NCBI RefSeq assembly: GCF_003018235.1 | Contig: NZ_CP027437.1 | Source: Escherichia coli | GTDB lineage: Bacteria > Pseudomonadota > Gammaproteobacteria > Enterobacterales > Enterobacteriaceae | Length of the DNA: 64,000 bases | Direction: 5' to 3' (one strand) | Shown: positions 1,330 through 14,625 of the stretch, one piece after another | Layout of the letters: the number at the start of each line of letters is the position of its first letter | Position numbering within the stretch: position 1 is the first letter of the stretch | Notes under the pieces: generated by a model | Seen by the model: only the letters and a program-made list of their open reading frames with translations | The model's database searches: none | Told to the model about the DNA's origin: nothing | Program-made: the position numbers and the translations under genes

Positions 1330-2310
1330 ATGAACGCAATAATATCGCCCGATTATTACTATGTTCTTACCGTTGCTGGTCAGTCTAATGCCATGGCGTA
1401 TGGCGAAGGACTGCCATTACCGGACAGGGAAGATGCGCCTCATCCCAGAATTAAACAATTAGCGAGATTTGCGCATACGCATCCCGGAGGCCCGTCATGT
1501 CACTTTAACGACATTATTCCACTGACTCACTGCCCACACGATGTTCAGGATATGCAGGGTTATCACCATCCTCTGGCAACGAATCATCAAACACAGTACG
1601 GCACCGTTGGCCAGGCACTGCATATTGCACGGAAATTACTGCCCTTTATTCCTGATAACGCAGGGGTTCTCATCGTTCCGTGTTGCCGTGGCGGATCGGC
1701 TTTTACCGCGGGCAGCGAAGGGAAATATTCAGAACGGCACGGAGCCAGCCATGATGCTTGTCGTTGGGGAACGGATACTCCGCTATACCAGGATTTAGTC
1801 AGCAGAACGCGAGCCGCACTGGCAAAAAATCCGCAGAACAAATTCCTCGGCGTATGCTGGATGCAAGGCGAATTTGACTTAATGACCAGTGACTACGCGT
1901 CACACCCTCAACACTTTAATCATATGGTTGAAGCCTTTCGTAGGGAGCTAAAACAATACCATTCTCAGCTTAATAATATTACTGACGCACCGTGGTTTTG
2001 CGGCGATACCACCTGGTACTGGAAAGAAAATTTCCCTCATGCGTATGAAGCTATTTATGGCAATTATCAAAATAATGTTTTAGCCAATATTATTTTCGTC
2101 GACTTCCAGCAACAAGGTGCAAGAGGACTGACGAACGCGCCTGATGAAGATCCAGACGATTTAAGCACGGGATATTACGGTTCAGCGTACCGGTCACCGG
2201 AGAACTGGACGACGGCACTGCGAAGCAGTCATTTCAGCGCGGCAGCCCGTCGGGGGATTATTTCTGACAGGTTTGTAGAAGCAATTTTGCAGTTTTGGCG
2301 CGAAAGGTGA
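1330..2310 (+). CDS. nanS: 9-O-acetyl-N-acetylneuraminate esterase
   Basis: Translation from MNAIISPDYYYVLTVAGQSNA matches NanS (YjhS); follows nanM in the same orientation as in the nanCMS operon. Confidence 0.88.
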   Translation: MNAIISPDYYYVLTVAGQSNAMAYGEGLPLPDREDAPHPRIKQLARFAHTHPGGPSCHFNDIIPLTHCPHDVQDMQGYHHPLATNHQTQYGTVGQALHIARKLLPFIPDNAGVLIVPCCRGGSAFTAGSEGKYSERHGASHDACRWGTDTPLYQDLVSRTRAALAKNPQNKFLGVCWMQGEFDLMTSDYASHPQHFNHMVEAFRRELKQYHSQLNNITDAPWFCGDTTWYWKENFPHAYEAIYGNYQNNVLANIIFVDFQQQGARGLTNAPDEDPDDLSTGYYGSAYRSPENWTTALRSSHFSAAARRGIISDRFVEAILQFWRER

Positions 2311-2317
2311 GCGTTCA

Positions 2318-2518
2318 TTAATTTGATTTATTTGCATCCATTAGCGCTTTTAACTGCTCCGGCGTAAACGGTGGTTTGCGTCGGTGCAACATCGCATGGC
2401 AATTAGGGCACACAGGAAGCAAATCATTAACTGGATCCAGCTGGTAATCCTCTTTAATGGCTGAAAGCGGCACCAGGTGATGCACATTAAGCAATTTCAG
2501 AACCGCATGCTCATACAT
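2318..2518 (-). pseudogene. Short HNH-endonuclease-like ORF (66 aa), probably a truncated remnant
   Basis: Translation carries HH..P....N....CPNCH..H spacing typical of HNH nuclease cores but is far shorter than standalone HNH enzymes. Confidence 0.35.
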
Positions 2519-2577
2519 ATTTCCCCCTAAGTTTGCTCACTGCCTTTAATTTATGTCACAGGCAATGTAATTCACCT

Positions 2578-2649
2578 GAAGCTCATCTTGAATCTGTCCT
2601 TCTACTTAGTCATTACCCTACTGGCACAACCGACCTCAAGATGAGCTTC
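2578..2649. repeat. 14-bp perfect inverted repeat (gaagctcatcttga / tcaagatgagcttc) with 44-bp spacer
   Basis: Read directly from sequence, arms at 2578-2591 and 2636-2649; lies just 3-prime of the minus-strand gene ending at 2656. Confidence 0.6.
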
Positions 2650-2655
2650 TTACTT

Positions 2656-3264
2656 TTAACGATGTATCAGAACAATCTTGCGCCGGGAGAATAGCGTTTC
2701 CGCAGACAGCTGGAATTTATATTCCGCGGCCTTCAGCTTTCGCGATTTAAGCATTTTCATCGTGATACCCCTTATTTTCCCTGACTCAACCTGTCTCTTG
2801 ATTTCGCCGGTGCTCAGCATGAGCTGCTTTTGCAAAATCGACAGCAGGCTGACCTGAAACGAACGGGAAATCCTGACGCTAACCTTGACCCATTTGCCGG
2901 GAGAAAGGCTGGCTAACCACTGCTCCTGAATGCGAAAATCAGGCCGACCCGATAGCTCTGCGTTGTTCCGCTTCAGCATCGCGATATCACAGGAAAAATG
3001 TTGAACCGTGGCTGCATCGTTGCTCATCAGCCGGTTATGAAGTTCGCGGTCAATTTTGCTGACGTGCAGGCGCGAAAATAGGGAGATATTCCAGGTGTAA
3101 TCACAGTGTGTGCATTTATAGATACTCCACACGTCCAGCACCTTCTTTTGCGAATTAATCCGAAATGCACCTGATGGCGTGAAGTCCCGTTTAATGTTGC
3201 ATGAAGGGCATCGCTTCGCAATGCGCTGATACCCCACGGGCGTGACGGTCCATGTAACTTTCAT
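2656..3264 (-). CDS. Hypothetical protein with N-terminal CxxC...CxxC zinc ribbon and basic C-terminal region (202 aa)
   Basis: Long ORF with two CxxC pairs (CPSC, CTHC) and a K/R-rich C-terminus; no confident family assignment. Confidence 0.5.
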   Translation of the reverse strand: MKVTWTVTPVGYQRIAKRCPSCNIKRDFTPSGAFRINSQKKVLDVWSIYKCTHCDYTWNISLFSRLHVSKIDRELHNRLMSNDAATVQHFSCDIAMLKRNNAELSGRPDFRIQEQWLASLSPGKWVKVSVRISRSFQVSLLSILQKQLMLSTGEIKRQVESGKIRGITMKMLKSRKLKAAEYKFQLSAETLFSRRKIVLIHR

Positions 3265-3559
3265 AACCTACCTTTTTTAACCCATACAAAACCGGATCCG
3301 TACTGAACGGACCATGGATGTTTATGTATGAAAAATATTTAAGAGATATTTTTCAGAGGGTTAAAAAAAGATTTCCAACTATGCAATCCTGTCGGTGAGC
3401 AAAGAGATATAGCGAGACTATCAAAACGGCAATTATTGGGTATATGAGTTCAATCAATATTCATGATGGTTATGGCTTGTTCTATTGATCTGACACATTA
3501 AACACGGCGCATTAATTTTGTATGTTTTATGAACAACCCAACAACAAAAGGAGCGCGAT

Positions 3560-3811
3560 ATGACACAGCACGAACGGTTTTGTCAGGCCTGCGGAATGCC
3601 GATGTCCGCACCTGATGCGCAGGGGAGTAGCGATAAATACTGTGCATACTGCAGCGATAGCAACGGCAATCTTAAACCCTGGGAAGAGGCGGTATCAGGC
3701 TTGGCCAGCTTCCTTGATTCCTGGCAAAAAGTCGGTCCAGAAGAAGCACAGAAGCGTGCAAAACGTTATCTGACGGCAATGCCTGCCTGGGCTCATAAAG
3801 CGGACGAGTGA
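3560..3811 (+). CDS. Small zinc-ribbon domain protein (83 aa)
   Basis: CQAC...CAYC motif; strong SD aaaggag 8 nt upstream of ATG. Confidence 0.5.
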   Translation: MTQHERFCQACGMPMSAPDAQGSSDKYCAYCSDSNGNLKPWEEAVSGLASFLDSWQKVGPEEAQKRAKRYLTAMPAWAHKADE

Positions 3812-3875
3812 ATAACAAAGTCAGGGTGATTTAGGCAGTCTATCTTCACTCCGCTGATTCCATTAAGGAGAGCCG

Positions 3876-4268
3876 ATGTTTTCTCACATTATGCTTGGAA
3901 CCAACAACCTGCCACGCGCCATTGCATTCTACGATCCGTTGATGGATATGCTGGGGTATCCCCGCGGCGGCAGGAAGAGGAGATCGCATGGTGGGGCGTT
4001 TTCAACGGTAATAACACTACGGCACTGGGTATCAGTAGGCCATTTGATAAACAGGTTGCCACGACCCGAAATGGAGTGATGGTCGCCCTGATTGCGCGTT
4101 CTGCCGAACACATCCAGCAAGTTTCATGTGCTAGCTTTAAATCACGGTGGCACTGACGAGGGAGCACCTGGCCAGCGTCCGCATTACGGCGAAGGGTTCT
4201 ACAGCGCTTACGTCAGAGACACCGATGGCAACAAGCTGGCTTACGTTTATTACACCGCACAATCCTGA
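3876..4268 (+). pseudogene. VOC/glyoxalase-family gene disrupted by frameshifts
   Basis: N-terminus MFSHIMLGTNNLPRAIAFYDPLMDMLGY in frame 1 (SD aaggaga upstream); the rest of a VOC-like protein (ALGISRPFDKQVATTRNGVMVAL... and GGTDEGAPGQRPHYGEGFYSAYVRDTDGNKLAYVYY) continues in the other two frames, implying at least two frameshifts. Confidence 0.5.
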
Positions 4269-4512
4269 GAACGATAAAGCGGGGGCCTCAGCGCCCCCAC
4301 CTGAAACTAAACCGATCCCGCAGATGTCAATGAGCGTTGAACGAGTTGATAAATGCCGAGATGTCTGACTGTTTTTACGCCAGAACTCCATGGTGTGACA
4401 ACCATACACATACTCCCTTCTTGACACCTTTAAACCATTTAACCGCATGCCTCTGTCTGCCCTGCAGGGACGGCTGATGCCTGTGTGTTGTCTGGCGGTA
4501 AGGAACAATACT

Positions 4513-4674
4513 ATGTACGCAAAATCCTTTATCGCTCTCGACGGGAATGGTCGTCTGACCGGTGCCCGTACTGCGCAGACCGCCCCTTACGATCGTTATA
4601 CCTGCCACCTCTGCGGTAGCGTGCTGCAATACCATCCTGAATACATCACCGAACGCCCGTGCTTTGAACAGTAA
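4513..4674 (+). CDS. Small hypothetical ORF (53 aa, MYAKSFIALDGNGRL...)
   Basis: ATG preceded by aagga-like SD; contains CHLCGS motif; function unknown, could be a remnant. Confidence 0.25.
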   Translation: MYAKSFIALDGNGRLTGARTAQTAPYDRYTCHLCGSVLQYHPEYITERPCFEQ

Positions 4675-5266
4675 CCAACACACTGACAGAGGGCGGCGAA
4701 AATGCTTTATGCAAATCTTGATGCAAAGGCAGCCAGACGAATTCGTAAGTTACGCTTTTACGTGGCAGATACTCAAAGCAGACTGGCATTGTAGCGACGA
4801 TTGCCACGGTGAACGCTATTGTATGGCATGTAGTACCTGAGACTTCAGCCGCCCAGTAGATATAGCATCATGAAAAAACTGAAATGCTTTCTTGCCAACA
4901 ACTCACTGAGCTAGTATGCCTCCACCGATGTAACAATTAGAGCAAGCGTCAAAGTGCGAAACTGCCCTCACGTAGCTGCAAGTTAACACCAGGAAATCCT
5001 GGTTCAAACACGACCAGCTCTATGTTAGCGGCAAGCAATCGTTGAACTAAACGCATATGCAGCCGGAGATGAAAGTTAGGAAAAAAGCAGAGGCTGATAA
5101 GAATTATGCACGTTGAGCTGGGATCGTAATACCCCACTTAAAATGTACAAGGGGAGTAGTCTAATGATGTTAAATACGAACCTTCAGTATTGTTCATTCA
5201 CCAATTTTCCCATATTCTCTCATCATTAATATTCTCTGCCGAATTTTATAGGGCTAACTCGCTGAA

Positions 5267-5470
5267 ATGAATGACAAAGCTTTAACCTTGAAAGATGTGG
5301 TGGCTTACTTAAAGTTGGCAGAAAAAACAGCGTATAGGTTGACTAGCGAAGGCAAATTGCCGGGATTTAAGGTTGAAGGCTCATGACGCTTCAAACGAGA
5401 GGATTTAGATATGTGGATTGAAGGTCAGAAGACTCAAAGCTACCCGAGTATCACAAAATCCAATCGTGGT
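5267..5470 (+). pseudogene. Excisionase/AlpA-like HTH DNA-binding protein interrupted by in-frame TGA
   Basis: Translation MNDKALTLKDVVAYLKLAEKTAYRLTSEGKLPGFKVEGS*RFKREDLDMWIEGQ; the stop at 5384-5386 sits where this family has the conserved Trp of the GSWRF motif. Confidence 0.5.
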
Positions 5471-5666
5471 TGATCAAGTGGATAAACATGAAAAGTCGGT
5501 AGCCCTCAAAGGCCACTTGCCACATGCAGTGAAGCAAGCCGTTGTGCAAGCTCTACTGAAAGAAGGTGATATCGCCCGAACGTTGCTCAAGGATCCACAA
5601 GTTATGGCAAGTTATGTTGAGCTGATTTTCGACATGATGAAGCAGAATAAAAATATGAATATCTAA
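5418..5666 (+). CDS. Small hypothetical ORF immediately upstream of the ATPase gene (non-ATG start in ORF track)
   Basis: ORF-track call only; start is TTG/GTG with no convincing SD; overlaps the 3-prime end of the HTH pseudogene. Confidence 0.2.
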   Translation: MKVRRLKATRVSQNPIVVDQVDKHEKSVALKGHLPHAVKQAVVQALLKEGDIARTLLKDPQVMASYVELIFDMMKQNKNMNI

Positions 5667-5708
5667 AAGATTTTGGGCTATCTATTACGTTTTAAAATGA
5701 GATAAATA

Positions 5709-8246
5709 ATGATAAATGACCATGAAGAACTAGAACTTGCTAAAGCTCAGGCAAAAGAAATATGGAAGATCCTTGATTATGTTCGAGGAGCATCACCTAT
5801 ATCTAATTATCGCTCATTAGCGTATTCAATCTTCTTCGTACGCTATCTTCAATCCAATACAGGTCAGCATTTTGAGGCAGAAAGGTTCGACTCTTTTAAT
5901 GTCATCGCCCAGTATTCCTACGATCTTGTAAACTATGCCGTTCAACTTGGATTGATTCATAGCGACGTATCTAAATTCTTAATTTATTATTTAGAAAACA
6001 CACTCCGTTCATTTGTCAATATTGATGAGTCTTTTGTTCGTTATGCAATTAGAGATGGTCTACTCAATAAAACCCCTGCAATAGCGTCGCTTTCTTTATC
6101 AGAACTGGATTTACTTTTTGCCGAGAATGAAGGTAAGTCAGGAGGTGAGTTTTATACCCCTAGAGACGTCAACTTATTGGTTAAAATATTAGGATTGAGT
6201 TATCAACCAAAGTCAATATGTGACCCATTTGCAGGTGCTGGAAACACAGCATTTCCTTTTGCCAATACTGGTATTGAAAAAGTTAGGATTGATACTCAAG
6301 AAATTAATAGAGATGCTTACTTTAAACTAGTAATAAGTAGAGTCATCAGGAAAATAGAAGGTCGAGACTATTTCGGCGATTCCCTATCACAACCATTATA
6401 TCAAGAAAATAAATATGATCTGATAGTTTCTTTCCCACCTTTTGGCATGAAAATTCCTAAAGCCACTCGAAATAATATTTACTATAAAACAAGTAATAAG
6501 TGGCTGGATATTACTGAAATCTTGCCAGAAAGTAGAAGTGATTGGTTTATAACATTATCAATGCTTCCAGCCCTTTCTGAGGGGGGTAAGATACTAGTAG
6601 GTATGTCACTTGGGGCTTTGACAAGAGCAGGCTCTGAGGCAAAGGTTCGTGAGTATTTAGTCTCTCGCGGAATTATCGAACAAGTAATTCTTTTACCTAA
6701 AAATATTTATTACTCTACGGCTATCTCAACTGTACTTCTTGTCCTCAACTCAGGAACAAGTAACATAAATAACAGAAGTATTAAATTTGTAGATGCTTCA
6801 CTGTTTTACGAGCCTGCCCGTGGTCGAAACACCCTCACAACAAAAAATATAAATGAGATCGTAGAGGCTTGTCATAAAGATGGCCGATTTAGTATTAGTT
6901 CATCTCATACCCAAATAGCAAACAGAGACTTTAATTTAGATCCGTCTCTTTATGTACGTAAAGATCTCAAAATCAGTGAGGTTTCTTTAAAAAATTTTAG
7001 AGGATACTCTGACTTTAAAGTTTCGATACATCCTTCTTTAAATGTATTGGTTGGTGAGAACGGCGTCGGGAAAACTTCGATATTAGAAGCATTAGCATGT
7101 GGCCTTGGTCCTTTCCTTACTGCTATGCCTGATGCTAAAGGAAAACTGATAAAAAAATCAGATATCCATATAAGTTCAAAAGGAATCGCAAATTATGCTC
7201 GAATATCGATTGAAACAACATCAAGTTTAAGTTGGGATCTTGTGGCAAAGGGGGTTGATGTTTCCGAGCCCCCTAAGATAGGAACATCAGCATTAACTAG
7301 CTACGCTACTCATCTTGTAGATAGTCAGTCTGAATATCCACTCATTGCTTATTATGGGACTAACCGTGCTCTTACTTCTACCAGTTCTAAAGTTGCAATA
7401 AATCCATTCGAGAAAGAAAATCGTGGGGAAGGTTATGACTTTGCTTTAGATGCTAAAGTTAACTACGGCATCTTAAAGAACTGGTTTTCAAAAATAGAGG
7501 TTGATGAGCTTCGAAAACGTGATGAACTAAAAGACCATAAATTCATTCATCCGGCTAAGAGACTTGTTTCAGAGGCTGTTTACCAGATTGTTGATCGAGC
7601 TACATGCTTGGAGTTCGACAAAAATAGTAACGATGTTATGGTTCATTGGAAAAATGAGCAGGGAGAGTGCGTAAAGCTTACATTGGAACAACTAAGTGAA
7701 GGGTATAGAAATATGGTATCCCTGACCATTGACCTAGTGAGGCGTGCTTATTTACTTAATCCTACCAAACCGAAACCGCTAACAGTTAATGGGATCGTTT
7801 TAATTGATGAAATTGAACTTCACTTGCACCCTAGATGGCAGCAAAAGATTTTAAATGATCTTACTAAGCTGTTTAAGAATATTCAGTTTATTGTCACGAC
7901 ACATAGTCCTCAAGTCTTAACAACAATCAAAGCCGATTGTATCCGTATTGTTTCCGTCAATGCTAACGAAGCAAAATTAGTGACAGGAACTACTACTTAC
8001 GGTTCTGAAAGCTCAAGAATGTTGGAAGATGTTTTAGGTGGTAACAATCGCGCCCAACATCTTGATATTGTTAAAAAACTAAACCGTTATACAGAGTTAG
8101 TAGAGGCCGACAAATGGGATACCGATGAGGCATTAGAACTCAAAAAAGAGTTATATAAATGGGGTGGTCAGACAGAAGACGAGCTTCAAAAATTAGAAAC
8201 TGATATTCGAATTCGCGAGTTCGAGCGTGGCAATGAAAAAGATTAA
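5709..8246 (+). CDS. Fusion protein: N-terminal gamma-class N6-adenine methyltransferase-like domain plus C-terminal ABC-type ATPase (Septu PtuA-like)
   Basis: MTase-like motifs in order X-I-IV: EFYTPRDV (about aa 147), DPFAGAGN (about aa 172), SFPPFG (about aa 240). ATPase motifs: Walker A GENGVGKTS (about aa 449), Walker B VLIDEIELHLHP (about aa 695), TTHSP (about aa 730). AT-rich coding sequence. Confidence 0.75.
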   Translation: MINDHEELELAKAQAKEIWKILDYVRGASPISNYRSLAYSIFFVRYLQSNTGQHFEAERFDSFNVIAQYSYDLVNYAVQLGLIHSDVSKFLIYYLENTLRSFVNIDESFVRYAIRDGLLNKTPAIASLSLSELDLLFAENEGKSGGEFYTPRDVNLLVKILGLSYQPKSICDPFAGAGNTAFPFANTGIEKVRIDTQEINRDAYFKLVISRVIRKIEGRDYFGDSLSQPLYQENKYDLIVSFPPFGMKIPKATRNNIYYKTSNKWLDITEILPESRSDWFITLSMLPALSEGGKILVGMSLGALTRAGSEAKVREYLVSRGIIEQVILLPKNIYYSTAISTVLLVLNSGTSNINNRSIKFVDASLFYEPARGRNTLTTKNINEIVEACHKDGRFSISSSHTQIANRDFNLDPSLYVRKDLKISEVSLKNFRGYSDFKVSIHPSLNVLVGENGVGKTSILEALACGLGPFLTAMPDAKGKLIKKSDIHISSKGIANYARISIETTSSLSWDLVAKGVDVSEPPKIGTSALTSYATHLVDSQSEYPLIAYYGTNRALTSTSSKVAINPFEKENRGEGYDFALDAKVNYGILKNWFSKIEVDELRKRDELKDHKFIHPAKRLVSEAVYQIVDRATCLEFDKNSNDVMVHWKNEQGECVKLTLEQLSEGYRNMVSLTIDLVRRAYLLNPTKPKPLTVNGIVLIDEIELHLHPRWQQKILNDLTKLFKNIQFIVTTHSPQVLTTIKADCIRIVSVNANEAKLVTGTTTYGSESSRMLEDVLGGNNRAQHLDIVKKLNRYTELVEADKWDTDEALELKKELYKWGGQTEDELQKLETDIRIREFERGNEKD

Positions 8247-9021
8247 TAAGCTAGATGAGCCAAATCGGCTTGGTGTGTTCAAGGCTACTCATCCTAATGC
8301 TTTGTGGGAGAGGGATAAAAACTCAATTGAAGAGGCTTTCCGTTGTTGCATTGCCAGATATCAAGAAACTCTACAACAATTACGTACGGACCAAGGTAAT
8401 TTATGTGCATATTGTGAACAGGATTTAATGTCTGGAACTAATGGGGCATTAGATGACTGCCGTATTGAGCATTTTCATCCGAAATCTAAACGTGAACAGG
8501 GAGAACCTAATTGGGCTTTGGAATGGAGCAATTTGTTAGTTGTTTGCTGTGGCGGAAATCAAAGTAAAGTTGTTAATCCTGGGCAAAGATTTGATGCTGA
8601 TCCCAAAAATTACTCTTGCGATGTACCAAAGAGTGACAAAATTTTAGATACCATTATATTAAATCCACTTAATTTACCTGAATTAAATATCTGGAAGTTT
8701 CATCGTTCTTCGGGGCAAATTTCCGTAAATGAAGATTCCTGTTTAGAATTTGGTATAAGTGTTGAAATGGCACACCAAACAATTAAAGAATTGAATTTAA
8801 ATTCCCCTCGATTAATTAGATTTCGAAAGGCTATTCTAAATAATCTCAACATTTTAATAACAGAAAGGCTGAAGAAGGGACAAACGGTAGAGCAAGCTGT
8901 TAGATTTATTGCCATATCACTCTTTAGAAAAAATGGAGCAGGTGATTGGCCCTCTTTTTTTAGTGCAACACGATATTATTTAGGTCAGCAGGCTGAGCTT
9001 GTTTTAGCCCAACCTATTTAA
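8227..9021 (+). CDS. HNH nuclease (Septu PtuB-like)
   Basis: Motif CAYCEQD...DDCRIEHFHPKS...WSNLLVVCCGGN; start (GTG 8227 or ATG 8233) overlaps the stop of the upstream ATPase gene, indicating an operon. Confidence 0.7.
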   Translation: MAMKKINKLDEPNRLGVFKATHPNALWERDKNSIEEAFRCCIARYQETLQQLRTDQGNLCAYCEQDLMSGTNGALDDCRIEHFHPKSKREQGEPNWALEWSNLLVVCCGGNQSKVVNPGQRFDADPKNYSCDVPKSDKILDTIILNPLNLPELNIWKFHRSSGQISVNEDSCLEFGISVEMAHQTIKELNLNSPRLIRFRKAILNNLNILITERLKKGQTVEQAVRFIAISLFRKNGAGDWPSFFSATRYYLGQQAELVLAQPI

Positions 9022-9040
9022 CATACTTTCAACTAGTTAG

Positions 9041-9063
9041 AGAGGCTGCTTTTGGCAGCCTCT
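9041..9063. terminator. Hairpin between convergent operons (agaggctgcttttggcagcctct)
   Basis: Perfect stem agaggctgc/gcagcctct with T-rich loop, located between the stop at 9021 (+) and the stop at 9082 (-). Confidence 0.4.
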
Positions 9064-9081
9064 TGCAGAGTGCAGAATCGA

Positions 9082-10515
9082 CTACAGGGGCGATGCTAGC
9101 TCAGAGAACCAAGCGTGAACTGATCTGTAAAATGTGCTGATTGACCAAAACTCACTGCATGCAGCAACTAACAGAATGACCACTAAGAGGATCACTACAG
9201 TAGAAGTCATTCTTTCCACACGGCAGTATGATCCCATCGCATCTTTTACAGGTTGTCTAGCCAGTTCCTGATAATCCAGCTCATCCAGAAATCCGTATAA
9301 TTTAGTTCTCCAGGTGGTTCTAACTCTTTCAAGTAATGAAATTGTTTGCCTATTAATATAGACAGACATTCCATAGGAAATAACTATATAAACCGCGATA
9401 GCACAAAAAACCAAAGCGTAAATATTTTGCAAACCAACTGATTTTACTGCATCCAGACTGTAGCGAATAACCAAGACACTAATTACAAGAGCCATATCTT
9501 TCCATAAGGAAGAGGACAAATCTCGGGATTGCTGAATGATCTTTTGTGTATCTTCAGCCAGCGTTTTCCGCAAATCACCCAAGGATTTCATAGTATCTTT
9601 ACCACCAGTCCTGATATGGGCCTTATACATTAACCGTGCAGACTCCAAAGCTGATGAGAGTCGAAGCATCACTCCCTCACAAAAGTTCAGGTCTGAAGGC
9701 CACTCTCTAGCCAGCTCGCTGGACAAAAACGTATGTTTCAGCTCAGTTTCATTCCCCTCTAGAAAAATCCACTTTGCCGCTTCCTGGATAATATCAAAAG
9801 CAGGTAACGCTGCCGTCTCATCGCCGAATGCTATTTTTCTGGGAGGCTTTCCCGCAAGCCCCACCATCATTTCGTCAGCAAAAAAAAGTTCATTTGCAAA
9901 ACATTTCAGCAACTCTCGGCATCCTAGCAATTTCCATATCTTGATTGCTTCATCAGTCTTCTCACTACAAGTTTCAAGTATCCAAGGGGCAATGGCATCT
10001 GGAGGAAGAAAAGTTGTTGAATAACATTTGATGATACTTTTTGTTACTGAAGGCTTAGTGATAGCTGTTGCATCACCAGCACTCACCGGCTGTATCTCCT
10101 TCCATGGATGCACATACCAACTTATTGTCTGAAAGCCTTCAGTAATAAACAGCCCATAAATATGTTTGTACCGACAGAGTTTGCTATCTTGAAGTAAAAA
10201 AGTGCGCCATCCTTCTAAGGTAAAAAGCCTCAGTATCCCCGGAATTTCATTATAAGTGATGGTAATGTAGTGCTTCTGCCCTGGGACCCCCTCTCTCGGA
10301 TGAATAACATCTCTGCTCTCATCGATAAAAACGATCTTGAGATCTTCCGCATGTACATCCACTATTTCTCCCCATAAATCAAGGGATTCACTATCCATTG
10401 TGGCGGAAATAAAAAGCTTATGGATAGACACCTGCTGGTCCTCTGTGATCACAAGGTCAGATAAATGTCGTGAGTGGCATATAGCCTTACCGATTTTTTC
10501 CAATATCGATATCAT
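9082..10515 (-). CDS. Hypothetical protein with C-terminal transmembrane helices (477 aa)
   Basis: Long ORF; C-terminal hydrophobic segments (IYALVFCAIAVYIVISYGMSVYI and STVVILLVVILLVAACSEFWSI); 29-nt overlap with the upstream gene; no recognisable catalytic motif. Confidence 0.55.
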   Translation of the reverse strand: MISILEKIGKAICHSRHLSDLVITEDQQVSIHKLFISATMDSESLDLWGEIVDVHAEDLKIVFIDESRDVIHPREGVPGQKHYITITYNEIPGILRLFTLEGWRTFLLQDSKLCRYKHIYGLFITEGFQTISWYVHPWKEIQPVSAGDATAITKPSVTKSIIKCYSTTFLPPDAIAPWILETCSEKTDEAIKIWKLLGCRELLKCFANELFFADEMMVGLAGKPPRKIAFGDETAALPAFDIIQEAAKWIFLEGNETELKHTFLSSELAREWPSDLNFCEGVMLRLSSALESARLMYKAHIRTGGKDTMKSLGDLRKTLAEDTQKIIQQSRDLSSSLWKDMALVISVLVIRYSLDAVKSVGLQNIYALVFCAIAVYIVISYGMSVYINRQTISLLERVRTTWRTKLYGFLDELDYQELARQPVKDAMGSYCRVERMTSTVVILLVVILLVAACSEFWSISTFYRSVHAWFSELASPL

Positions 10516-11548
10516 CTGTTACCAATCCTGCAGTCACAATTACAATTCGTTTTCGCCCGTCTTCCATATTTTCTACTTCTGGTGCATTGTCTTCATCGTA
10601 GATAATGATTACATCTTCCAATGTTTCCAGTTTTCTCTTCCGGGGCTTCTGAATGTTATCGGGAATGATGCGGAAAGATTCACCTGAAATTCCTAAATCC
10701 TTTATTTTACGAAAAAAATACTTAACCAGAGGGTGTTCTTCCTCCAAAGGACCAAAAATCTGGGTCAACAATGGCAGTGCTTCATCAGTATTAAAATCCT
10801 GTTCGCCATGGCGTAAAGTTTCATAAATTTTGTTTACTCCGCTGCGCTTGATCTCTTCAGGTAGTAAGTTTCGATGCTTTTTATATACATCTTTTAATAC
10901 AGTAACTAGCTTATCGCTGAGCTGAGTTGGGTCATTGACGCGCTTAACCTGTAGAAATCGTTCAAAATAGACAGAGATGTTAGTACGTTTGCTGCGATCT
11001 CGTACGACAACTAATCCGCCCGGCAAATCTTCATTCAGCCGTACCAGTGCGATTTTCTGCATGGCTTCGGCTTTTTTAACGAAACTTTCGCGAAAGCGTT
11101 CGAGTTTAGGTACCTGAAACTCATCTCCTTCAACATCCAGCACATAACGGACTACATCTTCATTGTCATACTTAATCAACGCATACAGTTTCTCATCGTT
11201 GAGTGTATGAAGTTCAAAAAGGAAAAAAACGCCCATACTGGCATTCTTGGTATGGTGGTGAGACTGAAAATCGCTTGCCAATAAGGAGGATTGCTCAGTA
11301 AAGCAGCCGATATCGGTGTCTGCATGTTCCCTGATGATCCTCAGGATTCGCTCTGTATTTGACAACTCCTTAAAATGAAACATATTGCCACTAACTGCAG
11401 ATTTGATACGTTCCAGAAAGAAATCAACATGCTCCGGAGGGGAAATTTCGCTGAGTAAAACAGGGACTTCCAACTCACCGCCAACCACATGAAAAATCAT
11501 CCTTTTTATTGATAATGCATTGATTTCTTCATCCGTTAAAAAACTCAT
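10487..11548 (-). CDS. Hypothetical protein (353 aa), weak resemblance to NdpA/YejK-type nucleoid-associated proteins
   Basis: Long ORF first in a two-gene operon; size and scattered sequence patterns recall YejK, but this is an unverified impression. Confidence 0.5.
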   Translation of the reverse strand: MSFLTDEEINALSIKRMIFHVVGGELEVPVLLSEISPPEHVDFFLERIKSAVSGNMFHFKELSNTERILRIIREHADTDIGCFTEQSSLLASDFQSHHHTKNASMGVFFLFELHTLNDEKLYALIKYDNEDVVRYVLDVEGDEFQVPKLERFRESFVKKAEAMQKIALVRLNEDLPGGLVVVRDRSKRTNISVYFERFLQVKRVNDPTQLSDKLVTVLKDVYKKHRNLLPEEIKRSGVNKIYETLRHGEQDFNTDEALPLLTQIFGPLEEEHPLVKYFFRKIKDLGISGESFRIIPDNIQKPRKRKLETLEDVIIIYDEDNAPEVENMEDGRKRIVIVTAGLVTDDIDIGKNR

Positions 11549-11744
11549 TTTTATTTCTCAATATAGTGTTTATATTTACTACCGTGAGCCATCTTACCTA
11601 AGCGTAGAACGTGGCGGAAAACACGATAACATTATTGCATAGCTTACGGCGTAACTTATCCTCGCCCCAGACAGAATAAACGTCAAAATAAAATAATGAA
11701 AATATGATCGAGACAGCATTAGCTGCCCCGCTTTCTTAGACTTT

Positions 11745-12998
11745 TTACATTATTAGGGCAAAATCAAACGGACTCACCCCCTTCTCCCGATTCGCATCCA
11801 GATAATTTGCCCACCACTGCAGCATCAACCTACGCTCCCCAAGATGTTCCGCCTTATGGATGTATGCCGCCCGCACAGAGCTACGCTCCTGATGGCTCAT
11901 CTGCCGCTCCACTGCATTCCTCGACCACAATCCTGATTCAATAAGTGAACTACAGGCCATCGTCCTGAAACCATGCCCACAGACTTCCGTTTTGGTGTCA
12001 TAGCCCATAACTCGCAAAGCCTTGTTCACCGTATTCTCACTCATCGGCTTATGCGGATCGTGATCGCCCACAAAAATCAGCTCTCGATTTCCATTCATGC
12101 TTTTGATCTTTTCCAAAATAGCTAAGGCCTGCCGCGATAAGGGTACAAGATGGGGAGTTCGCATCTTCGAACCACGCTGAGAATGTTTAACACCGTCCAA
12201 CGGTTCACGCTCACCGGGGATCGTCCACATGGCCGTTTCAAAATCCACTTCTGACCAACGGGCAAAGCGCAGTTCGCTTGAACGGATGAAAACTAACAAA
12301 GTGAGTTCGACAGCCAGTCGAGTTAACGGCCTGCCGGAGTAATGATCAATGCGGTGAAGTAATTCAGGTATGCGGTTAAGCTCCAGAGCCGCACGATGCT
12401 GTCTTTTAGCAGTAGCAACCGCACCGGTAATCTCTTGCGCGGGGTTGTAGTCGATTAAGCCGCTCTGAACGGCAAAGCGCATAATCGCGGTAGTTCGCTG
12501 CTGTAAACGGGCGGCGACTTCAAGACGTCCGGATGACTCCACCGCTTTAATGGGTACAAGAAGATCCCGAGTCTTAAGCTCTGCAATGTTCCGCTTACCG
12601 ATAGCAGCAAAGAGATTATCTTCTAGGCTTTTCAATACACGAGCACTATGCGATGCAGACCACTTCTGATTACTGGCATGCCAGTCTCTGACGACCACTT
12701 CAAACGTTATCGCCTCTTGCTCCTGTTCTACCTTAACCGCTTTCTTGTTTTCACTGGGATCGACGCCGTTCGCTAAAAGCTTACGCGCTTCGTCTCGCCG
12801 CGATCGAGCATCAGCTAACGAAACTTCAGGATACTTCCCTAGCGCCAGCATCTTCTCTTTACCACCGAAACGATAACGAAGCCGCCAGTATTTGGAGCCG
12901 TTAGGGTGAACCAGCAAAACCATGCCTTCACCATCAGTAAGTTTATAGGCTTTTGCTTCAGGCTTTGCCGAACGAACCTTCACATCACTCAGAGCCAT
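11745..12998 (-). CDS. P4-type tyrosine integrase (IntB-like), apparently intact
   Basis: Translation MALSDVKVRSAKPEAKAYKLTDGEGMVLLVHPNGSKYWRLRYRFGGKEK... matches P4/CP4-like integrases and ends with a tyrosine-recombinase C-terminus; adjacent to tRNA-Leu 3-prime end. Confidence 0.85.
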   Translation of the reverse strand: MALSDVKVRSAKPEAKAYKLTDGEGMVLLVHPNGSKYWRLRYRFGGKEKMLALGKYPEVSLADARSRRDEARKLLANGVDPSENKKAVKVEQEQEAITFEVVVRDWHASNQKWSASHSARVLKSLEDNLFAAIGKRNIAELKTRDLLVPIKAVESSGRLEVAARLQQRTTAIMRFAVQSGLIDYNPAQEITGAVATAKRQHRAALELNRIPELLHRIDHYSGRPLTRLAVELTLLVFIRSSELRFARWSEVDFETAMWTIPGEREPLDGVKHSQRGSKMRTPHLVPLSRQALAILEKIKSMNGNRELIFVGDHDPHKPMSENTVNKALRVMGYDTKTEVCGHGFRTMACSSLIESGLWSRNAVERQMSHQERSSVRAAYIHKAEHLGERRLMLQWWANYLDANREKGVSPFDFALIM

Positions 12999-13196
12999 GA
13001 TGAATATCCTTTCAAGGGTTCTGTGTGGGTACAAACATTATCGAACCGGGATATACCCGCAGTTGTACCCGCATCAGTAAGTTGATGTAGATTGAATCAG
13101 GTTGACTTAGGTTGAGTGAAAAAGCGAGGAAAGCCTTGCGGATACTGGATTTCAGGCATAAAAAAAGACCTCAGTTGAGGTCTATTTACATACTTA

Positions 13197-13281
13197 TGGT
13201 GCCGAAGGCCGGACTCGAACCGGCACGTATTTCTACGGTTGATTTTGAATCAACTGCGTCTACCGATTTCGCCACTTCGGC
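13197..13281 (-). tRNA. leuX: tRNA-Leu (CAA)
   Basis: Reverse complement reads GCCGAAGTGGCGAAATCGGTAGACGCAGTTGATTCAAAATCAACCGTAGAAATACGTGCCGGTTCGAGTCCGGCCTTCGGCACCA, with cloverleaf features and a long variable arm. Confidence 0.9.
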
Positions 13282-13476
13282 ACTGAAGAGGTATGCGGAA
13301 AACGTTGTGGATTATACCTGTCGCACGCCACCATGCAAGCGCCAGCTTGCTCGCACCTCGCTAAGTGCTGAAATTTTCAGCATTGCATACAGTGATGTGT
13401 AACCTTTGTCACACTCCAGGCACCCCGCCCTGCCATGCTCTACACTTCCCAGACAACACCAGAGAAGGACCAAAAA

Positions 13477-14496
13477 ATGTCGATGATAAAAAGCTATGCT
13501 GCAAAAGAAGCGGGCGGCGAACTGGAAGTTTATGAGTACGATCCCGGTGAACTGAAGCCACAAGATGTTGAAGTGCAGGTGGATTACTGCGGGATCTGTC
13601 ATTCCGATCTGTCAATGATCGATAACGAATGGGGATTTTCACAATATCCACTGGTTGCCGGGCATGAGGTGATTGGTCGCGTAGTGGCGCTCGGGAGTGC
13701 CGCGCAGGATAAAGGTTTGCAGGTCGGTCAGCGTGTCGGGATTGGCTGGACGGCACGCAGCTGCGGGCATTGCGATGCCTGTATTAGCGGTAATCAGATC
13801 AACTGCGAGCAAGGTGCGGTGCCGACGATTATGAATCGCGGTGGCTTTGCCGAGAAGTTGCGTGCGGACTGGCAATGGGTGATTCCACTGCCAGAAAATA
13901 TCGACATTGAATCTGCCGGACCGCTGTTGTGCGGCGGTATCACGGTCTTTAAACCGCTGTTGATGCACCATATCACTGCCACCAGCCGCGTTGGGGTAAT
14001 TGGTATTGGCGGGCTGGGGCATATAGCTATAAAACTTCTGCACGCAATGGGATGCGAGGTGACAGCCTTTAGTTCTAATCCGGCGAAAGAGCAGGAAGTG
14101 CTGGCGATGGGTGCCGATAAAGTGGTGAATAGCCGCGATCCACAGGCACTGAAAGCACTGGCGGGGCAGTTTGATCTCATTATCAACACCGTCAACGTCA
14201 GCCTCGACTGGCAGCCTTATTTTGAGGCGCTGACGTATGGCGGTAATTTCCACACCGTCGGTGCGGTTCTCACGCCGTTGCCGGTTCCGGCCTTTACGCT
14301 GATTGCGGGCGATCGCAGTGTCTCTGGCTCTGCTACCGGCACGCCCTATGAGTTGCGTAAGCTGATGCGCTTTGCCGCCCGCAGCAAGGTTGCGCCGACC
14401 ACCGAACTGTTCCCGATGTCGAAAATTAACGACGCCATCCAGCATGTGCGCGACGGTAAGGCGTGTTACCGCGTGGTTCTGAAAGCCGACTTCTGA
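13477..14496 (+). CDS. ahr: NADPH-dependent aldehyde reductase (YjgB)
   Basis: Translation from [22 protein letters not shown]... with zinc-ADH motif GHEVIGRV. Confidence 0.9.
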
Positions 14497-14625
14497 TCCC
14501 TTTGCCGGGTGCCTGTCGCCCGGCGTTTAAATCTCTTTGGAAGGCGTCTCGCAATCTGCTGAATTTAGCGGTGAAGAGTGCGCAGCCGTTGCCTATACTC
14601 CAGGCAGGAAACTGGAGGATATCTC

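Follow-up and report, generated by a model that had tools for sequence, protein, structure and literature searches.

How does an integrative island at a transfer RNA gene come to have one recognisable end only, and what might the defence genes that remain in it do? These questions are raised by the block of DNA between nanS and the tRNA-Leu gene leuX in an Escherichia coli genome (assembly GCF_003018235.1, contig NZ_CP027437.1). We analysed the 64,000-nucleotide stretch that contains this block, which we call the window and to which all coordinates refer. On our reading, the block is a leuX island truncated by deletion. Its cargo includes a variant of the Septu defence system, in which the ATPase PtuA is fused to an HsdM-like domain that may guard restriction, and a second gene pair that resembles type II PANGU. 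Taken as a whole, we consider this reading probable.

A leuX-linked defence island

The block extends over 10.9 kb from the nanS stop codon (2310) to leuX (13197-13281, minus strand), which ARAGORN identifies as a tRNA-Leu(CAA) gene (Rfam tRNA, 59 bits). It is the sole tRNA gene that ARAGORN finds within the first 20 kb, and its 3′ end points toward lower coordinates. About 200 bp from this 3′ end, and facing it, lies a gene for a P4-type tyrosine integrase (11745-12998, minus strand). The encoded protein is full length (417 residues), has the P4-type domain architecture (Pfam Arm-DNA-bind_3, Phage_int_M and Phage_integrase) and matches PRK09692 (NCBIfam, E = 3e-76). An earlier note on this sequence, which had described an intact P4-type integrase beside the tRNA 3′ end, is borne out in this respect. 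The core of the attachment site (att) consists of the 3′-terminal 23 nt of leuX (13197-13219), a copy of which is repeated in strain PapM-32-1.

The GC content of 2314-13196 is 42.6%, compared with 51.3% in the remaining 50.7 kb of the window. The earlier note had called the whole block AT-rich. This holds for 5441-11700 (37-41% GC), to which the low GC content is restricted, and does not hold for 2488-5440 (47%) or for the integrase gene (50%). GC content at third codon positions is 0.26-0.40 in the defence genes, compared with about 0.6 in the flanking genes ahr and yjgR, so the block and its surroundings are not of uniform composition.

We compared positions 2000-13400 with 5,426 complete E. 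coli genomes by megablast. The flanks occur almost everywhere and the whole block in two genomes, so its content is far from being conserved throughout the species. The block of CFSAN018748 is 99.8% identical to that of the window and has an ISEc31 element inserted in its VOC-family pseudogene; the block of PapM-32-1 is 98.5% identical. We refer to these two as the sister genomes.

At the same position, strain K-12 carries KpLE2, about 40 kb of DNA with intB, insertion sequence (IS) elements, nanXY, fec, yjhFGHI and sgc. The two blocks share their tRNA target, their limits (leuX on one side and 3 nt past nanS on the other), an intB-like integrase and a yjhY-like gene. They differ in size, in the integrase, which is a pseudogene in K-12 and intact in the window, and in cargo: the window's block is without fec, sgc, nanXY and IS elements and contains two defence modules instead. 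Its distal att has also been removed by deletion. The earlier note's claim of a cargo unlike that of KpLE2 is thus right as regards fec and sgc and too broad as regards two segments, the integrase gene (83% DNA identity to intB) and 3542-3964 around the yjhY-like gene (83%), the only ones common to the window and the K-12 block. Another leuX-associated island with a P4-type integrase is PAI II of strain 536. These comparisons support a leuX-linked island with non-K-12 cargo; in kind, the block is an unremarkable case of a defence island linked to a tRNA gene, at a site classically used for integration.

The left boundary and the missing distal end

The earlier note had seen no distal att repeat, that is, no second copy of the leuX 3′ end, and our searches agree. 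A pattern search found no such copy in the window with up to three mismatches in 25 nt, and a search of the window for direct-repeat families gave no distal att. Local alignment and shared k-mers of at least 10 nt, judged against shuffled sequence, yielded no leuX 3′-end copy in the window above chance. A sliding-probe scan of the window also found no att copy; the same scan did locate the copy in PapM-32-1.

The left boundary itself, which the note had left undefined, can be placed by genome comparison at 2313/2314 and, for the element proper, at 2484/2485. The first position adjoins nanS (1330-2310, plus strand), an intact core gene that forms the left flank. Positions 1-2313 are 97.8% identical to K-12 without a gap, and homology with both K-12 and strain D9 stops at 2313, 3 nt beyond the nanS stop codon. 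What follows is a remnant of an HNH endonuclease gene, its last 56 codons (2314-2487, minus strand), shared with an intact HNH gene of CP131_Sichuan. The HNH gene directly follows nanS in 2,751 of the 5,426 E. coli genomes (51%). It is a common neighbour of nanS and not cargo specific to this island.

The second position lies within a chimeric open reading frame (ORF; 2318-2518, minus strand), which a three-way comparison of the window, PapM-32-1 and CP131_Sichuan marks as a deletion scar. Its first 11 codons come from the beginning of a YbaK/EbsC-family gene of the island, and the remainder is the HNH C-terminus. The translation opens with MYEHAVLKLLN (MNEHAVLKLLN in the YbaK/EbsC protein of PapM-32-1) and continues into the C-terminus of the HNH protein with VHHLVPLSAIKEDYQLDPV.... 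The window matches PapM-32-1 from 2482 rightwards, and 2518 corresponds to the annotated YbaK/EbsC start codon there. The junction, at about 2484/2485 and inside two genes, shows a microhomology of only 2-3 bp, which identifies the deletion as illegitimate.

PapM-32-1 shows what the deletion would have removed. There, the same element measures about 23.6 kb and is bounded on one side by leuX and on the other by 22 nt that directly repeat the leuX 3′ end. This distal att copy reads TGGTGC-GAAGGCCGGACTCGAA, and the element ends at tggtgcgaaggccggactcgaa, the last 23 nt of leuX minus one base. The distal att has a copy of the leuX terminator in front of it and a second, partial integrase gene beside it. 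Leftward of the part shared with the window, the cargo of PapM-32-1 comprises ybaK, a helix-turn-helix (HTH) gene, a YagK/YfjJ gene, a reverse transcriptase gene with a phosphoribosyltransferase-like gene, and a GTPase gene. It continues with a DUF932 gene, an antirestriction gene, radC, yeeU/cbtA and a restriction endonuclease gene before the distal att is reached. Beyond the distal att lie genes for AbiE, a PLD-family protein, BREX-1 and a phosphorothioate-dependent restriction endonuclease, and then an HNH remnant beside nanS. The 23.6-kb element thus sits in tandem with an older island. The whole leuX-nanS interval of PapM-32-1 measures about 45 kb (4184246-4229717 of its record) and holds two islands in tandem with the internal copy of the leuX 3′ end between them.

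From these comparisons, the block at 2314-13196 is the integrase-proximal 10.7 kb of an integrative island of the P4-integrase type at the leuX 3′ end. The window and CFSAN018748 share one deletion, which took the distal 13 kb or so of the element together with all that lay between it and the HNH gene, probably including an older island beyond the element. The distal att is therefore missing from the window. The earlier note had suggested that this site might have been eroded; the ORF in which a ybaK-like gene runs into the tail of the HNH gene, and the distal copy kept in PapM-32-1, bear that suggestion out.

One observation weighs against the simplest form of this history. The HNH remnant of PapM-32-1 is shorter than that of the window, ending at the equivalent of 2423 rather than 2487. 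The two arrangements therefore share a common ancestor and neither is derived from the other. We accordingly rejected the idea that the window is the PapM-32-1 arrangement minus one deletion; an ancestor with an intact HNH gene is needed.

As it has no second att and its excisionase-type HTH gene is broken, the block has very probably lost its mobility and is fixed in place. The HTH gene (5267-5386, plus strand) was recognised by reading the sequence. It has an in-frame TGA (5384-5386) where excisionase-type HTH proteins have Trp; the frame is otherwise open to about 5473, and a 39-residue product is annotated in both sister genomes. We also considered this gene as a candidate for RptR, a regulator of type I restriction-modification (R-M), and dropped the idea, RptR being a different, four-helix protein. 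The HTH pseudogene and the two frameshifted pseudogenes of the block (a VOC-family gene and a zinc-ribbon gene) are in the same state in the sister genomes. Their decay therefore preceded the deletion.

The block could instead be one state of a recombination hotspot between nanS and leuX, with cargo swapped through conserved flanks or related integrases and no integrase-mediated insertion of the segment. K-12, D9 and the window do diverge at the same nucleotide past nanS, half of all genomes have the HNH neighbour in common, and the window is without an att repeat. The 3.65-kb Septu module is moreover 95.5% identical in a Klebsiella leuX island with otherwise different cargo, which represents exchange at the level of a module. 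In PapM-32-1, however, a genuine copy of the leuX 3′ end bounds this cargo, and such a repeat is what site-specific integration leaves behind; the left junction of the window, moreover, is an illegitimate deletion inside two genes rather than an exchange of flanks. We consider a hotspot without integration unlikely. The two histories are compatible if integration came first and recombination and deletion followed, and the truncated island remains the account that we prefer.

A Septu variant with a fused HsdM-like domain

The earlier note had marked two operons in the block as defence candidates, and both assignments gain substance from the comparisons below, one operon matching Septu and the other the architecture of type II PANGU. 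The first operon consists of two genes on the plus strand. The upstream gene (5709-8246) encodes an HsdM-like-PtuA fusion of 845 residues, which we delimited with Pfam, PADLOC, NCBIfam, alignments to EcoR124 HsdM and within the family, an AlphaFold2 model and Foldseek. The downstream gene (8233-9021), which overlaps the upstream one by 14 nt at its start, encodes the HNH nuclease PtuB (PADLOC PDLC00349, E = 1.9e-100; TIGR02646, 83.6 bits with a cutoff of 52).

Residues 420-845 of the fusion form an ABC-type ATPase. Residues 420-843 match the full PADLOC model of PtuA (PDLC00278, E = 4.7e-106), and this part also matches the E. coli PtuA structure 8EE4 and the PtuA proteins of retrons Ec78 and Ec83. 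With a score of 329 and a cutoff of 500, it lies below the NCBIfam equivalog threshold for the PtuA of retron Ec78. Walker A, Walker B and the H-loop are intact, and the corresponding motifs (GENGxGKT, DE and THSP) are invariant in the family alignment.

Residues 1-419 are HsdM-like and comprise a helical N-terminal domain and an N6_Mtase fold. Residues 137-418 match Pfam N6_Mtase (E = 7e-42) and EcoR124 HsdM. The AlphaFold model of the fusion (pLDDT 75, pTM 0.73) contains a helical N-terminal domain, a Rossmann-type domain and an ABC ATPase. In Foldseek, the model matches PtuA with a template modelling (TM) score of about 0.7 (relative to the target) and the whole of HsdM, including its N-terminal domain, with scores of 0.62-0.65.

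The pair resembles Septu (PtuA-PtuB; PDB 8EE4 and 8EEA) in its ATPase and HNH partner, both matched at E = 1e-100 or better, and in its overlapping genes. Canonical Septu consists of two genes and has no extra sensor domain, whereas PtuA in the window carries an HsdM-like N-terminal extension of 419 residues. The window's module is therefore a Septu variant and not a canonical member. The combination of ATPase domain and HNH partner is also found in the PtuAB effectors of type I-A retrons, also classed as Septu type II (Ec78, Ec83 and Eco7). The ORF list of the island contains no reverse transcriptase gene and Rfam finds no msr-msd non-coding RNA in it; the module is therefore not a retron.

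Alignment to EcoR124 HsdM suggests that the HsdM-like domain has kept the S-adenosylmethionine (SAM) site and lost the catalytic residue. Motif I (DPFAGAG), which binds SAM, is retained. In motif IV, Phe242 (VSFPPFG) aligns with the Asn of NPPY in EcoR124 HsdM, giving FPPF in place of NPPF. An alignment of 22 family members, with E. coli and Undibacterium at its extremes, shows no variation in motifs X, I and II; position 242 is F in 18, L in two, C in one and N in one. The aromatic residue of motif IV is also gone in the Undibacterium fusions (FPPI and FPPM). Where these loci also contain a genuine HsdM gene, its motif IV reads NPPF or NPPY, and its identity to the fused domain is only 23-27%. 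Replacement of NPPF by APPA abolishes methylation by a type I enzyme (PMC5100572). We conclude that the HsdM-like domain has probably lost its catalytic residue and is apparently non-catalytic.

The HsdM alignment ends at residues 417-420, where PtuA begins, so the C-terminal tail of HsdM is missing. This tail anchors HsdM to HsdS through a four-helix bundle, and enzymes from which it has been deleted do not assemble properly (PMC9613975). Among the ORFs of the island we found no specificity subunit, and Pfam shows no target-recognition domain in the fusion or beside it.

The HsdM-like part has a dN/dS ratio of 0.135 between the window and a Klebsiella copy of the module; the values for PtuA and PtuB are 0.076 and 0.159. 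By this measure, the HsdM-like domain is under purifying selection.

Family, genomic contexts and origin of the fusion

A word-indexed search yielded about 60 full-length clusters of the fusion at 90% identity, from Gamma- and Betaproteobacteria. An exhaustive search of 1.84 billion representative proteins gave four full-length fusion representatives at 50% identity, past which scores fall from 265 to 127 bits, the level of ordinary HsdM. In the literature that we searched, no methyltransferase-PtuA fusion is described. We regard the HsdM-PtuA fusion as new and the island that carries it as ordinary.

We read the gene neighbourhoods of 12 fusion lineages. In 11 of them, a PtuB-length partner (243-272 residues) lies downstream of the fusion gene; in Vibrio (L022) the partner is fragmented. 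Six lineages have a type I R-M operon next to the pair. In five of these (Klebsiella, Shewanella, Undibacterium, Vibrio and Pseudoalteromonas), the fusion gene lies just downstream of hsdR on the same strand, with at most one small ORF in between; in the sixth, Plesiomonas, the pair is convergent with the type I operon. In the other six lineages (the window, Aeromonas, Serratia, a Yersinia integrative and conjugative element and two metagenomic contigs), the pair has no type I genes nearby.

One of these contexts is a leuX island of Klebsiella pneumoniae. By blastn, 5441-9087 of the window is 95.5% identical to it (dS 0.158), and in Klebsiella the segment lies behind hsdM-hsdS-hsdR and a gene for a protein of 146 residues. 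A small ORF of the window (5478-5666, plus strand) is, by gene context and blastn, the 3′ remnant of this 146-residue gene, and the homology breakpoint at 5441 falls inside the remnant of a small gene between hsdR and the fusion. The identity and the position of this breakpoint indicate a recent transfer between genera in which the module became detached from a type I operon.

The small ORF has a weak PADLOC match to the C-terminal 70 residues of PDC-S15 (E = 4e-6); PADLOC gave no match for the full 146-residue gene of Klebsiella or for the module's other neighbours. As a whole, the Klebsiella island (loci L003-L007, 501-13037) consists of a truncated P4-type integrase gene, hsdM-hsdS-hsdR and fusion-ptuB, with two unannotated genes (298 residues and 124-153 residues) where the window has its second candidate defence pair.

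A protein of Photobacterium carnosum (P0069, 849 residues) has an HsdS-like N-terminal half (Pfam Methylase_S) joined to PtuA from about residue 400. It is a second, independent fusion of PtuA to a component of type I R-M.

Proposed role of the fused domain

Canonical PtuA-PtuB is a complex of ATPase and nuclease, and retron-linked forms are restrained by multicopy single-stranded DNA. We propose that PtuA of the window's family acquired an almost complete HsdM subunit at its N-terminus. The HsdM-like domain, predicted to bind SAM and to be non-catalytic, would act as a sensor or bait that keeps PtuA-PtuB inactive. The trigger would be a phage attack on type I restriction, through either a DNA-mimic anti-restriction protein of the Ocr/ArdA type or the depletion of SAM by a SAM lyase. 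The HNH nuclease PtuB would then be released. HsdM-PtuA/PtuB would thus be a guard of restriction, with a dead HsdM domain as bait for anti-restriction measures. We put this role forward as a tentative possibility. It would explain why the pair so often closes a type I R-M operon and can nevertheless persist by itself on islands such as the window's.

There are precedents for defence effectors tied to components of type I R-M, namely PrrC with EcoprrI, Ronin and PARIS (AriA-AriB), and the AriA protein of PARIS is an ATPase related to PtuA. Ronin (HsdMS and RonA) works without methyltransferase activity and adjoins a DUF4102 (P4-type) integrase. The window's module differs from all three in that bait and ATPase form one polypeptide, HsdS is absent and an HNH nuclease serves as effector; the likeness is one of proposed mechanism only.

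Several points weigh against a guard role. Six of the 12 lineages have no type I genes within 7-9 kb, so the link of the pair to restriction, though frequent, is not a strict one. In the window, the module is severed from its type I operon and could be non-functional if such a partner is required. Motif I is intact and one family member keeps the Asn of motif IV, so the fusion may still methylate. Finally, among the 145 nearest HsdM-like proteins in the exhaustive search, 23 also have neither Asn nor Asp at the motif IV position. The F242 substitution is therefore unusual and not unique, and the loss of activity is a prediction. In relatives of this kind (P0264, P0183, P0294, P0319 and others), the position is occupied by T, H, C, V, Q, S, A, I or F. 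One of the 23 is a free-standing protein of 455 residues with FPPF.

A second possibility is that the HsdM-like domain docks PtuA-PtuB on a cognate type I complex as an alternative M subunit, in which case the window's copy would be a non-working orphan. The gene order in the five lineages with the pair directly downstream of hsdR, including a translational overlap in Undibacterium, is consistent with docking, as is the breakpoint at 5441, which suggests that the module was excised from such an operon. Heteromeric type I enzymes of the form M1M2S also exist. The domain is, however, without the C-terminal tail of the four-helix bundle, the deletion of which disrupts assembly (PMC9613975), and at 23-27% identity it is distant from the adjacent HsdM. 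Six lineages, moreover, hold intact, full-length pairs with no type I system nearby. Docking is in our view distinctly unlikely. That the fusion is an active DNA methyltransferase in a self-contained R-M-like system, with PtuA-PtuB cutting unmodified DNA, is very unlikely: the invariant motifs X, I and II, the purifying selection on the domain, the NPPF kept in one member (P0067) and the occurrence of the module on its own would fit, but the catalytic Asn is Phe, Leu or Cys in 21 of the 22 members, the Undibacterium fusions have in addition lost the aromatic residue of motif IV, the APPA exchange kills methylation (PMC5100572), and neither a specificity subunit or target-recognition domain nor the tail for HsdS binding is present.

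We therefore prefer the guard role to docking and to methylation, in that order, because it accommodates the conserved SAM pocket, the apparently dead catalytic loop, the position at the ends of hsd operons and the occurrence of the module alone, and because PrrC, Ronin and PARIS provide precedents.

A gene pair resembling type II PANGU

The second defence candidate consists of two genes on the minus strand. One (10487-11548) encodes a nucleoid-associated protein of the YejK/NA37 family (353 residues; Pfam NA37, E = 1.5e-12, residues 20-337), which we consider a candidate sensor of the Pag2A type. Its 3′ end overlaps by 29 nt the other gene (9082-10515), which encodes a membrane protein of 477 residues and is a candidate effector of the Pag2B type on the basis of hydropathy, charge and an AlphaFold2 model (pLDDT 84). 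This protein has an N-terminal alpha/beta domain, long helices and at least two C-terminal membrane helices (at about residues 363-385 and 436-455). Residues 1-335 are mildly acidic, with a net charge of -9 and an isoelectric point of 5.6.

The 477-residue protein has no match in Pfam, PADLOC, NCBIfam or PHROGs, and a Foldseek search of the PDB with its model returned nothing below E = 0.01. The likeness of its long helices to alpha-pore-forming toxins has a low probability in Foldseek and does not count as evidence. The NA37 protein has no match in PADLOC or NCBIfam and one weak, unannotated match in PHROGs (phrog_1974, E = 1.2e-4).

Homologues of the membrane protein, all unnamed and 475-499 residues long, form 93 clusters from Enterobacterales, Alpha- and Betaproteobacteria and methanotrophs. 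A diverged NA37 gene (64% DNA identity) is present in about 30 E. coli genomes. At the one such locus examined, in EC1722-1 (L016, 4603-7066), the NA37 gene belongs to the moron region of a Rac-like prophage, with the Q antiterminator on one side and the lysis genes on the other, and overlaps a gene for a 477-residue membrane protein that is 39% identical to the window's. The NA37 gene of EC1722-1 is split in two. In Bosea, the same overlapping pair lies beside AbiJ and a CBASS operon.

A 2026 preprint gives operons of this kind the name PANGU; its type II consists of the NA37 protein Pag2A and the membrane protein Pag2B, the latter with an N-terminal acidic domain and a C-terminal membrane domain (bioRxiv 10.64898/2026.04.06.716658). 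The E. coli system is reported to protect against T4 by abortive infection, for which both genes are needed, and Pag2A to depart from the nucleoid upon infection (bioRxiv 10.64898/2026.04.06.716658). The window's pair resembles it in having a YejK/NA37 gene, an overlapping partner with a C-terminal membrane domain, an E. coli source and a location in a defence island. Type II PANGU is defined as a two-gene operon with a gap of under 40 bp, and the 29-nt overlap of the window's genes falls within this limit. In its architecture, the pair matches type II PANGU. On the role that we infer from this match, degradation of host DNA by phage nucleases would cause the NA37 protein to leave the nucleoid, and the released protein would activate its membrane partner. 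Infection would then be aborted, in the way that the preprint describes for its type II system.

Two points tell against this assignment. The likeness is one of architecture as described rather than of sequence alignment, and the partner's N-terminal domain, where type II PANGU has an acidic, DNA-mimic 'DMK' domain, is only mildly acidic. The pair might serve another purpose, as a nucleoid or membrane accessory function or as an addiction module of a mobile element. Such a role would be in keeping with the missing matches to PADLOC, NCBIfam and PHROG defence models and with the dependence of the assignment on a single preprint, compared by architecture only. The pair is, however, always cargo of mobile elements (the leuX island, the moron region of the Rac-like prophage and the Bosea defence island with CBASS and AbiJ), and its architecture matches a type II PANGU system that is active in experiments. 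We think a role outside phage defence quite improbable and favour the assignment to a PANGU-like pair.

Remaining genes and flanks

The rest of the block, between the deletion scar and the Septu variant, is occupied by intact small genes and decayed ones. A DUF1062-domain gene (2656-3264, minus strand; 202 residues) is intact as an ORF and carries the DUF1062 annotation in both sister genomes. An intact zinc-ribbon gene (3560-3811, plus strand) is the yjhY-like gene of the block and lies in the segment 83% identical to K-12 (3542-3964), at the position of the KpLE2 pseudogene yjhY. PADLOC, NCBIfam and PHROGs gave no match for the DUF1062 or the zinc-ribbon protein.

The VOC-family pseudogene (3876-4268, plus strand) is recognised by its broken ORFs and the second zinc-ribbon pseudogene (4513-4840, plus strand) by two overlapping ORFs in different frames; both are annotated as frameshifted in the sister genomes. 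The decayed genes listed in the earlier note, namely the HNH fragment, the frameshifted VOC gene and the HTH gene with a stop, were thus all recovered where it had placed them.

A terminator hairpin of leuX lies at 13166-13183. In a promoter and terminator scan of the island, counts were at or below those expected from shuffled sequence, and the leuX terminator was the only credible one. At E of 0.1 or lower, Rfam finds only the tRNA over the island and no retron non-coding RNA or other known RNA.

Outside the block, nanM (51-1265) and nanS lie on the left and ahr and yjgR on the right. RefSeq annotates nanS as a partial pseudogene in CFSAN018748, PapM-32-1, CP131_Sichuan and D9; the gene is uninterrupted in the window. 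On the right, ahr is followed directly by yjgR in the window (14496-14578), whereas K-12 has idnK and idnD of the L-idonate cluster beside ahr. Homology with K-12 ends with ahr, and the L-idonate cluster is missing in the window and in the other four E. coli genomes that we looked at.

Implications

The leuX block illustrates how islands become fixed. One illegitimate deletion removed the distal att and about 13 kb of the element, leaving a chimeric ORF behind.

The pair of NA37 protein and membrane protein is a candidate for a natural E. coli example of a type of system so far described only in a preprint, and could provide an independent test of it.

Septu ranks among the most common defence systems, and its way of sensing infection is a matter of debate. 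An HsdM domain that is fused to PtuA, conserved and apparently non-catalytic is a concrete candidate for a Septu sensor. If this domain does detect anti-restriction proteins or the depletion of SAM, the fusion would be a further example of layered immunity, with a second system keeping watch on R-M, and would join PrrC, Ronin and PARIS.

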